The notes under the pieces are model-generated. The model ran no database searches and was not told where the DNA came from. It saw only the letters and a list, made by a program, of their open reading frames with translations. Below are positions 45,416 through 60,760 of a DNA stretch of 64,000 bases, in pieces (position 1 is the stretch's first letter; every line of letters starts with the position of its first letter). The translations under genes and the position numbers were made by a program. Origin of the DNA: Patescibacteria group bacterium (GTDB lineage Bacteria; Patescibacteriota; Patescibacteriia; JACRDY01); NCBI GenBank assembly GCA_041650515.1, contig JBAZLA010000004.1:23748-87747 (forward strand). Direction: 5' to 3'.

Positions 45416-45505
45416 CACAGTCCATAGTACCCAGTACACAGATATAAGAACCCACCGACGGTGGGTTTTGATTACTATGGACTAGGTACTCGGTACTGTG
45501 GACTA
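45416..45505. repeat. X1: about 90-nt direct-repeat element (gtac-rich imperfect inverted arms around a central GC hairpin), copy 1
   Basis: cagtccatagtacccagtacacag..aacccaccgacggtgggtt..ctatggactaggtactcggtactgtggac. Abuts the ligA stop codon. Homologous to 60655-60760. Confidence 0.55.
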
Positions 45506-47542
45506 TTCTAAGAGATTCAAAAATTCTTGCTCACTGATTATTCCGACACCCAACTCTTTAGCTTTATTGTATTTACTACCCGGCGCTTTCCCGGCAATTA
45601 CATAATCAGTTTTTCTAGACACTGACTCGCTAATCTCGCCGCCGAGTGCCCGGATTTTAGCCTTAGCCTCATCACGACTTAGACTAATCAAGCTACCAGT
45701 CAAAACAAAATTTTTACCCGCCAATTTTCCACTGTGGACTGTGGACTGTGGACTGTGGACTTTTATGCCCAGCGCTTGCAGCCGCTCGATCAACTTTAAA
45801 TTTCTTGACTCCCGAAAATAATTAACTATGCTTTCCGCTACTACCCCGCCAATATCTGACACAATTTGCAATTCTTCAAGCTTAGCCTGGCTTAATTTTT
45901 TAATATTTCGAAAATGATTAGCCAAATTAATGGCCGTCTCTTCGCCAACGTTTTTAATCCCTAAAGCATAAATAAATTTAGCTAGTTCAATTTTTTTACT
46001 TTGGTTAATCGCTTTAATTAGATTTTCGGCTGACTTTTCGGCAAATCGCTCTAGCGGCTCCAGGTCACTTAGCTCCAGTCGAAAAATATCGGCGGCATCT
46101 TTAACTAAATCTTCATTCATTAATTGCTCCACAATCCTCTCGCCCAGTCCATCAATATCAAAAGCCTTGCGGGAAACGAAATGAATTATTTGCGCTTTTT
46201 CTTGGGCAAAACACTGCGGATTAGTACAAAATATGCCAACACTTTTATTCTGTTTTTTGTCACTAATTTCCTGCCGTTTAACCGCTGAGCCGCAGATTGG
46301 ACAATGTATCGGCATTCTAAATTCTTTTTCGGCGCCGCTCCGTAGCTTAGGCAAAACTTCCACCACTTCCGGAATAATTTCGCCAGCCTTGCGGATGACC
46401 ACCGTGTCGCCGATTTTGACTCCCAAGCGCCTAATTTGTTCTTCATTATGTAACGTCGCCCGCTTAACCGTCGTACCCGCTAGTTTAACCGGCCGCAGAT
46501 GGGCCACTGGCGTCAATGTGCCTAAACGACCAACCTGAATTTTAATATCTTCAATCACAGTTGTTACTTTTTCCGCCGGAAATTTAAAAGCGACGGCCCA
46601 ACGCGGGGCTTTACCAATATAGCCAAGTTTTTGTTGATACTCACGCTGATTAACTTTCACTACAATCCCATCGATCCAATAAGCCTGCTTGGTCCTTTTT
46701 TGACTCCACTCCTGCCAAAATTTTAATATTTGGTCTAGATCCTTACACAAACAATAATGCTGATTGATTTTAAAACCCAATTTCTCTAGACCAACCAATT
46801 CCTCAAGCTGAGTCGACGGTAGGCTCTCCTGACCACCAGACCAATCATATACAAAACAATCAAGTTTGCGATTGGCAACTATTTGCGGATTAAGCTGACG
46901 GATCGTGCCGGCCGCGGCATTGCGCGGATTGGCAAACTCAGGTTCGCCCCGTTCTCTTCTGTCTTGATTAATTCTTTCTAGTTGTTCAGACGAAAGCCAA
47001 ACTTCACCTTCAACAATCACATCGACTGGTTGTTTAAGCTCCAGCGGAACGCTATTAATCGTCTTAATATTTTGAGTAACATCTTCACCGATCAGACCAT
47101 CGCCACGCGTCGCCGCTAATTTTAACTGGCCTTTGACATAAGTAAAAACAATATGCAAACCATCTATCTTTAGCTCACAACAATATTCTAAAGACGGCCG
47201 GCGGCCAATCTCTTTTTCCAAAATTTTTAGTATCCGTTCTTGCCAATCAGCTAACTCAGTTTGATTAAAAACATCATTAAATGACCATTGTCGAACAACA
47301 TGCTTAACTTTGGTAAATTTAGCCAAAGGCTGACCGCCGATCCGTTGGGTTGGCGATGTCGCACTCCGAAATTGAGGATATTTAGCTTCTAAGTCTTTAA
47401 GTTCAATAGTTAATGAATCATAAACTTCGTCTGAGACCGCTGGATCATCCAAGACATGATAACGATAGCGCAAATCATCAATCTGCTTTCTTAGCTTGGC
47501 AATTCTCTCTTTAGCTGATTTGAGATTAATTAGTTCAACCAT
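45503..47542 (-). CDS. ligA: NAD-dependent DNA ligase
   Basis: 679 aa. Adenylation KxDG ([10 protein letters not shown]); Zn finger (CPICGS...C...C); HhH motifs; C-terminal BRCT. Confidence 0.9.
45731..45760. repeat. Heptanucleotide tandem repeat (actgtgg) x4 inside ligA
   Basis: actgtggactgtggactgtggactgtggac. Encodes [10 protein letters not shown] in frame in the linker before the BRCT domain. The motif ctgtggac also occurs in X1. Confidence 0.85.
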
Positions 47543-47606
47543 AATTTTATTTCCTGCTTAATCTACACCAAAATACATTAGGTAGGCTGATCTTTATCAA
47601 TCATTA

Positions 47607-58442: not shown

Positions 58443-58856
58443 CTACTCCTGTTTTTGATCAATAGCCTGATTAACCAGTTTATCAGCCAGTTTGTTCTCC
58501 TCCCTGGGGACATGATGATATTTAATTCTCTTAAAACCCAGGGCTAGGTTCCAAATTTTGACAAAAATTTTTGCTAATTCCTTATTTTTAACTTTCATTG
58601 TCTGACTCAGCTGACCGACAACCAACTCGCTATCCAAAAAAAAGTCAATTTCCTCACCACCTAGCTCTTGAGCCTTTTCTAAGGCCAGGACGACTGCTTG
58701 ATATTCGGCTTGATTATTAGTGGCGACGCCCAAAAATTTTTTATATTGCCCCAAAATCTCTTTTTGGTGATTATAAATCACCACGCCAATGCCTGCTGGC
58801 CCAGGATTACCCCGCGCGCCACCATCAGTATAAATTATTAGCTTAGTACTATTCAT
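58443..58856 (-). CDS. rnhA: Ribonuclease HI
   Basis: 137 aa. IYTDGGARGNPGPAGIGVVI, EYQAVVLAL and DSELVVGQ. Confidence 0.9.
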   Translation of the reverse strand: MNSTKLIIYTDGGARGNPGPAGIGVVIYNHQKEILGQYKKFLGVATNNQAEYQAVVLALEKAQELGGEEIDFFLDSELVVGQLSQTMKVKNKELAKIFVKIWNLALGFKRIKYHHVPREENKLADKLVNQAIDQKQE

Positions 58857-60654
58857 CTTTTTTTTCTAAATCAATAACTTTTAACTGCAGCTCCCGATTA
58901 CCATTCCACTCATTGACTCCAACATCAAAAACGATATCTACCCTATCCCCTTTTTTAATTTTATTATTGTGCTCTGGCATGATACCAAATCCAATGAATT
59001 TACGTAAGAGACCGTTTTTTTGCTTAACTAATAACCGTAAATGCAAATTGTCCTTACCCACTGGTTCGAGCGCCTCGACCTCGACTGATTGGACTAAAAA
59101 TTTTGGCCGTGGATTAGAATCGCCAAACGGCTCCATATTATTTAAACTGTCATACAAACTCCAAGTAACCTCTTCAAGGTCGACAACGGCCTCCACTAAA
59201 AGAGCTTTAGTTAAATCCTTATCGACTAAATTTTTATTGGCACTCTGTTGGATTTCTTTTTTAAACTTAGCTAGGTCATTTTTATCTTTTAAGGTAAAAC
59301 CACAAGCCGCCGGATGACCACCATAATTAGCAAACAAATAATCCAACTGCTGCAAAGCTTCAATAACATTAAAAGCCGGCAAGCTCCGGCCAGAGCCAAC
59401 AATTTCGCCGTCGTTCTCTGAGGCAACAATTACTGGCCGATTATATTGATCCATTATTTTACCAGCTACCAGACCAATCACGCCTAATGGCCAATCTTTA
59501 CCTAAAGCAAATAATAATTTTTCGGTTTTTAAGCTAGTCTCCACTTTTTGTCTCACCTCCTCGGTTAGCCGATCAGTCAAAACTTGACGTTGGCTATTAG
59601 TTTGATTAAGCAGATCGGCCATGTCCTCGGCCTCGCTCCGATCAGTCGTGATTAAAAGTCGATACGCCGTATTAGCATGACCAAGCCGACCAGCAGCATT
59701 AAGCCGAGGCGAAATTTGGAAAGCAATAGAATAAGTGTTAAGCCAACCAGCTTTGGTGGGTAAATAATCTTTTAAGCCACCGTTGATTCGATTGTTGCCA
59801 CCAATAGCGGCTTTTAAAAAAAGCGCTTGCAAACCCAGCCGCGGGGTTTTATTCAAAACCACCAAGCCATATTTAACCAGGGTGCGGTTCTCACCCAGCA
59901 GCGGTGAACAATCCGCGACTGTGCCAATTGCCACTAAATCCAACAACCATTTTTCTAAACCTTCCCAATTTTCTTGGTCGTCGAGTTTTTTAGCTTCCTT
60001 AATCAAAGCCTGGGCCACTTTGAAAGCCACGCCGGCCCCGGCTAATTCTCGAAAGGGATATTTCTCTTTTTCTACTTTTGGATCAATTAGAGCAAATGAC
60101 TGAGGTAACTCTAACGGTTGAGAATGATGGTCAGTAACAATAACGTCAATCCCAGCTTGGTTACATAAATTGATTTCGGCCGCGTTAGCGATACCGCAAT
60201 CAACAGTGATGATTAAATTAATTTTATCTTTGATAAAACCTTTAACAGCCTCGACATTTAAACCATAGCCTTCTTTTTCTCGGTGCGGGATATAAATTTG
60301 TAAAGGCAACTCATGAATGGCCTCTTCTGGTCTAAACTTTTCAATCAACTTTTGCAGGACGCTCGTCATCACTGCTGAGCTAGAAACTCCATCAGCATCA
60401 TAATCGCCATGAACCAAAATCTTTTCGCCCTTTTTGACTGCTGCCATAATCCGTTTGACCGCTTTTTTCATATCTTTAAACAAAAACGGATCATGGAGAT
60501 CTTGCTCATAATCGGGGTTCAAAAATTCGTCCACTTTTTCTTGGCTATCTAAGCCGCGATTATAAAGTAATTGCAAAACCACCGGCGAGAGCTCCGGAAA
60601 TTTAGCTTTAATTTCAGTGGGCGCCACTGGGGCGACTTGCCAGTTTTTAGGCAT
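58849..60654 (-). CDS. recJ: Single-stranded-DNA-specific exonuclease RecJ
   Basis: Start reassigned to ATG 60652-60654 (MPKNWQVAPVAP...). The 11 codons upstream translate the X2 repeat. DHH motifs (HGDYDADGVSS; VTDHH); DHHA1 GGHPAACGF. Confidence 0.85.
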   Translation of the reverse strand: MPKNWQVAPVAPTEIKAKFPELSPVVLQLLYNRGLDSQEKVDEFLNPDYEQDLHDPFLFKDMKKAVKRIMAAVKKGEKILVHGDYDADGVSSSAVMTSVLQKLIEKFRPEEAIHELPLQIYIPHREKEGYGLNVEAVKGFIKDKINLIITVDCGIANAAEINLCNQAGIDVIVTDHHSQPLELPQSFALIDPKVEKEKYPFRELAGAGVAFKVAQALIKEAKKLDDQENWEGLEKWLLDLVAIGTVADCSPLLGENRTLVKYGLVVLNKTPRLGLQALFLKAAIGGNNRINGGLKDYLPTKAGWLNTYSIAFQISPRLNAAGRLGHANTAYRLLITTDRSEAEDMADLLNQTNSQRQVLTDRLTEEVRQKVETSLKTEKLLFALGKDWPLGVIGLVAGKIMDQYNRPVIVASENDGEIVGSGRSLPAFNVIEALQQLDYLFANYGGHPAACGFTLKDKNDLAKFKKEIQQSANKNLVDKDLTKALLVEAVVDLEEVTWSLYDSLNNMEPFGDSNPRPKFLVQSVEVEALEPVGKDNLHLRLLVKQKNGLLRKFIGFGIMPEHNNKIKKGDRVDIVFDVGVNEWNGNRELQLKVIDLEKKDE

Positions 60655-60760
60655 ATTATAGTACGTAGTACCTAGTACACAGTACATAGAAATTTAACAC
60701 CACCAACGTTGGGTTATAAATCACTATGTACTAGGTACTGTGTACTCGGTACTGATTAAA
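60655..60760. repeat. X2: about 100-nt repeat element, copy 2, same orientation as X1
   Basis: tagtacgtagtacctagtacacagtacatag..aacaccaccaacgttgggtt..cactatgtactaggtactgtgtactcggtactg. Shares blocks with X1: agtacc(c/t)agtacacag, aac(c/a)cacc(g/a)acg(g)tgggtt, ctatg(g/t)actaggtact, ctcggtactg. Confidence 0.55.

Follow-up and report, generated by a model that had tools for sequence, protein, structure and literature searches.

A 64,000-nucleotide stretch of contig JBAZLA010000004.1 from a Patescibacteria group bacterium (assembly GCA_041650515.1, positions 23,748 to 87,747; here called the window) contains 2 related sequences of about 100 nt, X1 (45416..45505) and X2 (60655..60760), one on each side of a 15-kb interval with ligA, type IV pilus (T4P) genes, rnhA, and recJ. 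This layout raises the question of whether the 2 sequences are the ends of a segment that can be excised, integrated, or inverted, as was suggested in an initial interpretation, here called the sequence-only reading, or whether they are elements of another kind. We conclude that X1 and X2 are unconnected with the 15 kb that they flank. With a probability of roughly 0.7, they are 2 diverged copies of a short extragenic palindrome with inverted heptamer arms that have grown by slippage, which belongs to a widespread bacterial class and would form RNA hairpins at the 3' ends of genes or between cistrons. The class as such is known, poorly understood, and surprisingly widespread.

Both elements were confirmed at the positions given in the sequence-only reading. 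Their arms consist of tandem AGTACNN/AGTCCNN heptamers, with about 4 units in each (Tandem Repeats Finder, TRF: period 7, 4.4 to 4.6 copies). The left arm of X1 contains the units AGTCCAT/AGTACCC/AGTACAC (45419-45439) and the right arm the units ACTATGG/ACTAGGT/ACTCGGT/ACTGTGG/ACT (45474-45504), and between them is a core hairpin, AACCCACC-GAC-GGTGGGTT (45449..45467), which is terminator-like on both strands. The corresponding units in X2 are AGTACGT/AGTACCT/AGTACAC/AGTACAT (60660-60687) and ACTATGT/ACTAGGT/ACTGTGT/ACTCGGT/ACT (60723-60753), and its core (60692-60721) is weak, a decayed homologue of that in X1 with one indel. Each element thus has the features of an inverted heptamer pair, with at least 3 tandem 7-nt units in convergent arrays that are located on opposite strands and close together. 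A scan with AGTACNNAGTACNNAGTAC that allowed up to 3 mismatches yielded 20 matches, compared to 0.62 expected, and neighboring matches were in register, 7 nt apart. All matches but one fell within X1, within X2, or at 45731-45761, a third site, inside ligA. No further AGTMC arrays were found in 17 kb past the window, which gives a total of 2 AGTAC-type hairpins plus the array within ligA in the 81 kb covered.

The internal dyad with gtac-rich arms that was described for each copy in the sequence-only reading is real. The arms are 73% complementary in X1 (45409-45457/45459-45507) and 76% in X2 (60660-60701/60712-60753), with folding energies on the plus and minus strands of -43.5 and -48.2 kcal/mol for X1 (z -6.2 and -7.6) and -37.3 and -40.4 kcal/mol for X2 (z -4.5 and -4.9). 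Folded by itself, the center of X1 reached -14.4 kcal/mol (z -4.8) and that of X2 -3.8 kcal/mol (z -1.5). The relatedness of the 2 copies was also confirmed, with a mean column identity of 79% in a MAFFT alignment and 72 identities in a global alignment of elements of 90 and 100 nt, although the longest exact run in common is 13 nt. The statement that they have the same orientation is, however, nearly meaningless, because each element is nearly palindromic and aligns almost equally well to the reverse complement of the other (68 identities, compared to 72 in the forward direction). No second copy of the X1 core was found within the window. At the Rfam gathering threshold, X1 and X2 were not assigned to any family and the whole window gave tRNAs only, while a permissive Rfam search with X2 yielded just sub-threshold microRNA-hairpin noise.

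The positions of the elements relative to the surrounding genes were examined next to Pfam assignments that confirmed ligA, recJ, rnhA, gatC, gatA, and lepA. As the sequence-only reading had noted, X1 abuts the end of ligA, the gene for the NAD-dependent DNA ligase (45503..47542, minus strand): the TAG stop codon (45505-45503) forms part of the outermost X1 heptamer, at a distance of 0 nt. X2 is located immediately 5' of recJ (58849..60654, minus strand), the ATG of which, at 60654, is 5 nt from the first pentamer of X2. The N-termini of RecJ proteins in relatives align from this ATG (601 aa), and judged by that alignment the public gene call (58849-60687, 612 aa), which starts inside X2 and had been seen as an open reading frame (ORF) running through the repeat, is an artefact. 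Just upstream of recJ, a conserved 31-codon ORF for a membrane-protein-like peptide, MKIKKKKLEKIIWIILTIVIVFTMVIWTASF (60756..60851, minus strand), was identified by tblastn at the same position in 2 related loci, L128 (E=6e-5) and L123 (E=4e-4). The public gene calls do not include this ORF, which ends in a stop codon 2 nt away from the outer pentamer of X2. X2 is accordingly flanked by 2 minus-strand genes, and of the 2 copies that had been placed at strand switches only X1, which is located between convergent genes, is at such a site. The palindrome of X2 furthermore continues outward to 60639..60767 and so overlaps the first 5 codons of recJ and the end of the small ORF. Among the 15 outermost positions (60639-60653 with 60753-60767), 12 pair, a level matched in only 6 of 200,000 random placements. 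X2 thus runs on into flanking coding sequence and lacks clean ends, and inspection of the sequence revealed no target-site duplication or flanking direct repeat at either copy.

To assess the proposed boundaries, we compared the window proteins by tblastn with 80 loci encoding LigA relatives (47% to 70% identity); labels such as L123 and L128 denote DNA loci compared in this study. The order T4P-ligA-gatC-gatA-p146 was kept in nearly all relative loci of at least 9 kb, and L123 and L128 kept lepA-recJ-rnhA-pilM-...-pilD-ligA-gatC-gatA-p146 straight across both X positions. The gene order in these loci is thus unbroken at both sites and the interval is colinear with both flanks, so that the synteny comparison, which the sequence-only reading had put forward as a check, speaks against rearrangement. 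The interval consists of core genes of ordinary composition and was found in a single orientation in the relatives and in 2 assemblies. No integrase, invertase, or transposase was identified among the genes called in the window and the 17 kb outside it (about 81 kb). A pair of attL and attR sites would have a recombinase gene nearby, and none is located near either boundary of this segment, which is moreover conserved in relatives; an invertible segment would have an invertase, and neither such a gene among those called nor a second orientation was seen. In a second assembly (Logan, SRR8542065), the contigs were 100% identical over X1 and X2 and had the same junctions; they may not be independent of the ENA assembly, and their identity is uninformative on strain-level variation.

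The idea of att-like or terminal repeats around an excisable, integrative, or invertible segment thus draws on 2 related sequences of about 100 nt that flank 15 kb and on variable, GC-richer ORFs outside each of them. Set against this are the unbroken synteny, the core genes of the interval, the absence of a called recombinase, the identical junctions, and an exact repeat of 13 nt at most in elements with ambiguous orientation. In addition, many genomes commonly have architectures of the X type at sites unrelated to these, and relatives have slots for variable genes without any X. We consider it extremely improbable that X1 and X2 bound such a segment, and reject this interpretation. There is thus no mobile or invertible ligA-recJ island, which removes a false lead for annotation, along with a wrong annotated start of recJ.

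Evidence for a broader class came from scanning a single genome for each species with the pattern AGTACNNAGTAC-N25-55-GTACTNNGTACT, which returned at least 120 AGTACNN-armed loci, compared to about 17 expected by chance according to our own estimate, which assumes uniform composition. The statistics that follow refer to the matches listed. They represent Acidobacteriota, Planctomycetota, Bacteroidota, Gemmatimonadota, Chloroflexota, Verrucomicrobiota, Elusimicrobia, Absconditabacteria, and other phyla, and several genomes contained at least 2 copies. True hairpins numbered 97, with median values of 4 units per arm, 27 nt for the center, and 79 nt for the total length. The agreement at the variable NN positions between the 2 arms of an element was 0.755, compared to 0.383 ± 0.026 for permuted partners, and the agreement among units within one arm was 0.61. 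Each element thus has a heptamer variant of its own, homogenized over both arms. The context statistics relied on crude ORF calls (longest-ORF greedy) and gave a median distance of 7 nt to stop codons and 23 nt to start codons. With regard to context, 46 elements were located between genes in the same direction, 10 between convergent and 10 between divergent genes, and 17 inside long ORFs. The centers were mostly unstructured (median z about 0) and not GC-rich.

The class is not restricted to AGTAC. Counts in viral contigs were 18 for AGTAC, 10 for ATGAC, and 3 for GATAC, and the ATGAC matches, which had served as a control, turned out to be genuine heptamer hairpins; the idea that AGTAC is uniquely special was therefore rejected, and the class is a general one. 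In the viral contigs L223-L232, these were multi-unit hairpins with AATGACG/AATGACC arms around GC-rich centers, which make up another family with this architecture. It was also noted that 3 loci in Alloprevotella/Prevotella metagenome-assembled genomes (L003, L007, and L018) have AGTACAG arms and a common, conserved asymmetric center, CCATGCGGAAC...CCGGATGG, which occurs in either orientation; this points to a dispersed family in these genomes, one that has a defined core. Another locus, L091, contained a 320-nt AGTACYC array beside a HIP1 site. Full-text literature searches for AGTACNN array strings found no paper, and a keyword search for STRR and heptamer repeats gave nothing directly relevant.

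Heptamer arrays are also frequent in the closer relatives. In the window and the 80 related loci, 75 arrays of period 7 were identified, compared to 5.0 in shuffled sequences, a 15-fold excess, while the corresponding values were 25 and 5.6 for period 8 and 38 and 11 for period 6. The heptamers differ from genome to genome, and analogous spacers in relatives hold other heptamer hairpins or arrays, as on both sides of ligA in L128 and at 8394-8462 in L123. The junction between the small ORF and recJ contains X2 in the window, an unrelated 28-nt palindrome in L123, and nothing in L128.

The best described counterpart is found in Xanthomonas. Among long simple repeats in bacteria, heptamers stand out as the most over-represented (PMC4692102, PMC4679880); slippage in a polymerase-sized register has been put forward as a cause, as cited in these 2 papers. 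In Xanthomonas campestris and Xanthomonas citri there are about 190 heptamer arrays per genome, and GGGAATC arrays form 70 to 75 convergent inverted pairs per genome (Rehm et al. 2015, PMC4692102). The GGGAATC arrays are 89% to 93% intergenic, at a mean distance of 28 nt from the upstream ORF, and mostly located between genes in the same direction, with 16% in convergent and 7% to 8% in divergent contexts (PMC4692102). X1 and X2 resemble these pairs in having tandem 7-nt units in nearby arrays on opposite strands with stem-loop potential. The class shares with them an overwhelmingly intergenic location, nearer to the upstream ORF and mostly between genes in the same direction, as well as an unexplained function and a variation in length and sequence between relatives in which the flanking genes are conserved. 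Since the cross-phylum set behaves like the Xanthomonas arrays, we consider X1 and X2 to be new members of a described class. There are also differences: the AGTACNN unit, not being G-rich, has no G-quadruplex potential, only 2 copies were seen in 81 kb of the host, which belongs to a small-genome and probably Patescibacteria-like lineage, and X1 has a central terminator-like GC hairpin.

Other repeat families share some of these traits. The heptanucleotide STRR repeats of cyanobacteria and the TAACTGA repeats (MacGregor 2015, PMC4679880; Calothrix repeats are cited in PMC4692102) are, as outlined in these sources, dispersed intergenic tandem heptamers from unrelated phyla that occasionally occur in frame inside ORFs. 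However, these repeats are mainly direct arrays, with those of TAACTGA located just upstream of start codons, unlike X1 and X2, which are inverted pairs that start at stop codons. The REP/BIME elements of enterobacteria and the REPINs of Pseudomonas are described as short imperfect palindromes that are located in 3' untranslated regions (UTRs) and between cistrons of an operon and are transcribed into hairpins, as X1 and X2 may be, and have been proposed to act in mRNA stability, in termination, and in local regulation through the 3' UTR (PMC3116915; bioRxiv 10.64898/2026.03.23.713779). The arms of REP elements are not tandem heptamers, in contrast to those of X1 and X2. REPs are also marked by a conserved GTAG head and by a cognate transposase, RAYT; neither was found here, RAYT (Y1 transposase) having been sought among the genes called over about 81 kb.

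In the mechanism that we propose, the arms would lengthen and shorten through replication slippage in a 7-nt register, and either intrastrand template switching or gene conversion between the two sides of the hairpin would keep them complementary, which would explain why both arms of an element have its own heptamer variant. The elements would persist where they are least harmful, directly past the stop codon of the upstream gene, and may be tolerated there because promoters and translation-initiation regions take up the rest of the spacer. Minus-strand transcripts would contain a long RNA hairpin, at the 3' end in the case of X1 and between cistrons in the case of X2. At X1, the GC-rich core and a U-rich tail would terminate ligA, with the arms lengthening the stem, whereas the X2 hairpin would separate the small ORF from recJ within one transcript, in the manner of REPs. 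A terminator scanner matched the X1 core on the minus strand (45467-45449) to the intrinsic-terminator pattern, with a T-run on the plus strand and TCTTATATCT on the minus strand, and by this pattern the core is probably the ligA terminator. X1, X2, and an octamer-armed hairpin described below each fold more stably as the sense strand. The same holds for 24 of 36 cross-phylum cases among the matches listed, which makes an RNA-level function of X1 and X2 plausible, with weak support.

Several observations weigh against this account. The sense-strand bias in the cross-phylum cases is only a trend (Wilcoxon p=0.07), and X2 has no terminator-like core. In the class, the equal numbers of convergent and divergent contexts, which are based on crude ORF calls (longest-ORF greedy), and the mostly unstructured centers imply that termination is not a general function. 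The AGTAC-type hairpins in this genome number just 2, apart from the array within a gene, so that a high copy number of the family is not supported here. Finally, growth in situ cannot by itself explain the homologous core of X1 and X2, which needs one duplication or transposition event and leaves room for a transposable-element origin.

Such an origin would make X a non-autonomous element, similar to a miniature inverted-repeat transposable element (MITE) or a REPIN, that is copied by a transposase encoded elsewhere and uses the heptamer arrays as terminal binding sites. It would account for homology in the core as well as the arms, for the conserved asymmetric centers in both orientations in L003, L007, and L018, and for the filled, differently filled, and empty states of the small-ORF/recJ junction in 3 genomes. 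We nevertheless find it unlikely, given that neither copy has a visible target-site duplication, that no transposase or RAYT gene is among those called in 81 kb, and that the X2 palindrome enters coding sequence and so has no clean ends; a heptamer variant homogenized within each element also fits local expansion better than copying from a master. It is more improbable that X represents a dedicated family of bidirectional transcription terminators or insulators, the alternative offered in the sequence-only reading. This fits better than the boundary interpretation in that the elements belong to a dispersed class of hairpins, X1 lies between convergent genes with a core that fits the intrinsic-terminator pattern, and both elements begin 0 to 2 nt past a stop codon and have a more stable fold in the sense direction. 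But X2 is located between genes on the same strand, 5 nt from the recJ start, and has a weak core without a U-tract, and among the matches listed the contexts show no convergent bias and are mostly same-strand. Neither a terminator-like core nor a terminator-like context could therefore be upheld as a feature of the class. The plus strand moreover already has a terminator-like hairpin of its own ahead of X1, GGATTCCG-12 nt-CGGAATCC followed by TTTTTGTTTTTT (45366..45405), which was read from the sequence, lies between the plus-strand ORFs and X1, and is independent of X1; its loop is too long for the terminator scanner to register.

A regulatory role for the arrays, as operator-like sites at which a sequence-specific DNA- or single-stranded RNA-binding protein, such as a cold-shock protein with an OB-fold, co-regulates ligA and recJ, seems still more remote. 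The only AGTAC-type hairpins in 81 kb do adjoin 2 DNA-repair genes, the pentamer is conserved while NN varies, and in Beggiatoaceae arrays upstream of start codons have been proposed as regulator sites, with Csp proteins binding the heptamers (PMC4679880). Yet X1 is located at the 3' end of ligA and not at a promoter or start, and no candidate regulator was identified. Many different heptamers are present in other spacers and coding regions of the same genome, which would need many different readers. A resemblance to the cyanobacterial LexA box (GTAC...GTWC), which has an 8-nt spacing, was also considered and rejected, both on the 7-nt spacing of the arrays and on the 3' position of X1. We thus favor the slippage-grown palindrome, for which the AGTACNN inverted pairs of many phyla, close to stop codons and with homogenized arms, provide material to test models of slippage, template switching, and RNA hairpins.

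The third site of the heptamer scan is a perfect array of AGTCCAC (4.4 copies, 45731..45761, minus strand), in frame in ligA, which encodes 10 residues in the linker between the HhH and BRCT domains. Its unit is identical to the outermost heptamer of X1, 230 nt away. The Logan contig L239 breaks off within the 31 nt of this array, probably because the repeat interrupted the assembly, the assembler presumably having been run with 31-mers. A second perfect array, of ACTTTTG (4.7 copies, 13858-13890, minus strand), is located in the gene for tRNA-guanine transglycosylase, tgt (13306-14475), where it is in frame as CAAAAGT and encodes 11 residues; the same heptamer forms an array in L125 (2193-2226).

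In none of the 45 ligA ORFs examined in relatives do heptamer arrays or small GC-rich palindromes interrupt the reading frame. In-frame insertions in LigA recur after residues corresponding to about 113, 237, 428, and 545 in the window protein, and consist of lineage-specific heptamer arrays, short GC-rich palindromes, or both, some of them repeated within one gene. ORFs with such insertions were noted in L136, L139, L141, L143, L145, L146, L150, L154, L157, L170, and L199; the peptide TLSPKGARG is present 3 times in L139 and ILSQGERAIM twice in L157, and the ligA ORF of L146 contains an X-like architecture with a heptamer arm, a GC hairpin, and an inverted arm. Within the short loci compared, the GC-rich palindromes of relatives were found almost only in ligA. 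A literature search for in-frame palindromic elements in the candidate phyla radiation (CPR)/Patescibacteria found nothing. Rickettsia palindromic elements (RPE) were reportedly described by Ogata and colleagues in 2000 as inserted in frame in protein genes. The ligA and tgt inserts are similarly small repeat or palindromic DNA in frame in essential genes, which would add short peptides at tolerated surface positions, but RPE form one conserved family of about 100 to 150 nt, in contrast to lineage-specific arrays and short palindromes. The inserts suggest one way in which essential proteins encoded by reduced genomes could acquire extra peptides. It is conceivable, though we hold it to be tentative and rather doubtful, that an active process that writes repeats in a 7-nt register operates across bacterial phyla, with heptamer hairpins and, in this small-genome lineage, in-frame inserts in LigA (at 5 recurrent sites, that of the window included) and Tgt both as its outcomes, and that X1 seeded the array in the ligA linker.

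Two GC-rich orphan ORFs, A (44112-44480) and B (44597-44980), are located on the plus strand at 44112..44980 in the gap between ligA and gatC, which varies from 26 to 3,154 nt across relatives. A third GC-rich ORF, D (60954..61325, plus strand, 123 aa), is situated in the gap between lepA and the small ORF. A and B, described earlier as a pair of paralogs, show only a weak similarity (39 residues, E=5e-4), and D is unrelated to them. None of the orphans matched a known family or had a homologue among the 80 relatives, and no link between A or B and X was found. Their slots (43956-45502 and 60852-61427), like those in L123 (1113-2370) and L128 (3797-4280), contain opposite-strand ORFs that are often GC-richer. 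The ORFs of the ligA-gatC and lepA-small-ORF slots have no detectable similarity between genomes, and those of the lepA-small-ORF slot in L123 and L128 are unrelated and on the opposite strand. Since unrelated genes fill the same slots in relatives without X, the slots exist independently of X, and the view of the orphans as cargo associated with X was rejected. In L123, the slot holds 2 cassettes, paralogous to each other, in which a promoter-like segment is repeated and the hairpin CCCGCCGGTGGACGGCGGG is present. Downstream of orphan B, the plus-strand region 45000-45405 has a GC content of about 0.56, compared to a background of about 0.40, folds with z -3.7 relative to shuffles, ends in the terminator-like hairpin at 45366-45405, and has no Rfam match; it could be an unclassified structured RNA instead of a 68-codon ORF.

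Further repeats were noted elsewhere on the contig. Arrays of AACTTTnn / AAGTTATA, with a period of 7 to 8, form a second family and fill whole spacers between genes on the same strand at 8116-8195, 43610-43652, and 63192-63260, and at 1105-1165 in L123. At 63194-63257, between murJ and lepA, such arrays form the octamer-armed hairpin mentioned above, while the murJ-lepA spacer of L128 has an unrelated TAGGGAC heptamer array. In the ATP-synthase operon (atpE-F-H-A), which is located on the same contig outside the window (L234), 3 consecutive spacers each contain a heptamer array of their own: CTAGCCA (16505-16538), GCCGATG (17032-17065), and GGTTGAG (17475-17500). Together with the in-frame arrays in ligA and tgt, the many different heptamers in the spacers of this lineage provide further material for such tests.

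A 20-nt perfect inverted repeat (32978-33074) brackets the gene for tRNA-Asn (32989-33061) and lengthens its acceptor stem, and a 3' part of this region is repeated 210 nt away (32775-32796 and 32985-33006). Finally, a 37-nt repeat with a GC hairpin, GGGTCCGCC-CGC-GGCGGACCC, is present in 2 copies with 92% identity at 4913-4949 and 39621-39657, about 50 nt downstream of the genes for tRNA-Tyr and tRNA-Ser, and is probably a shared terminator module.

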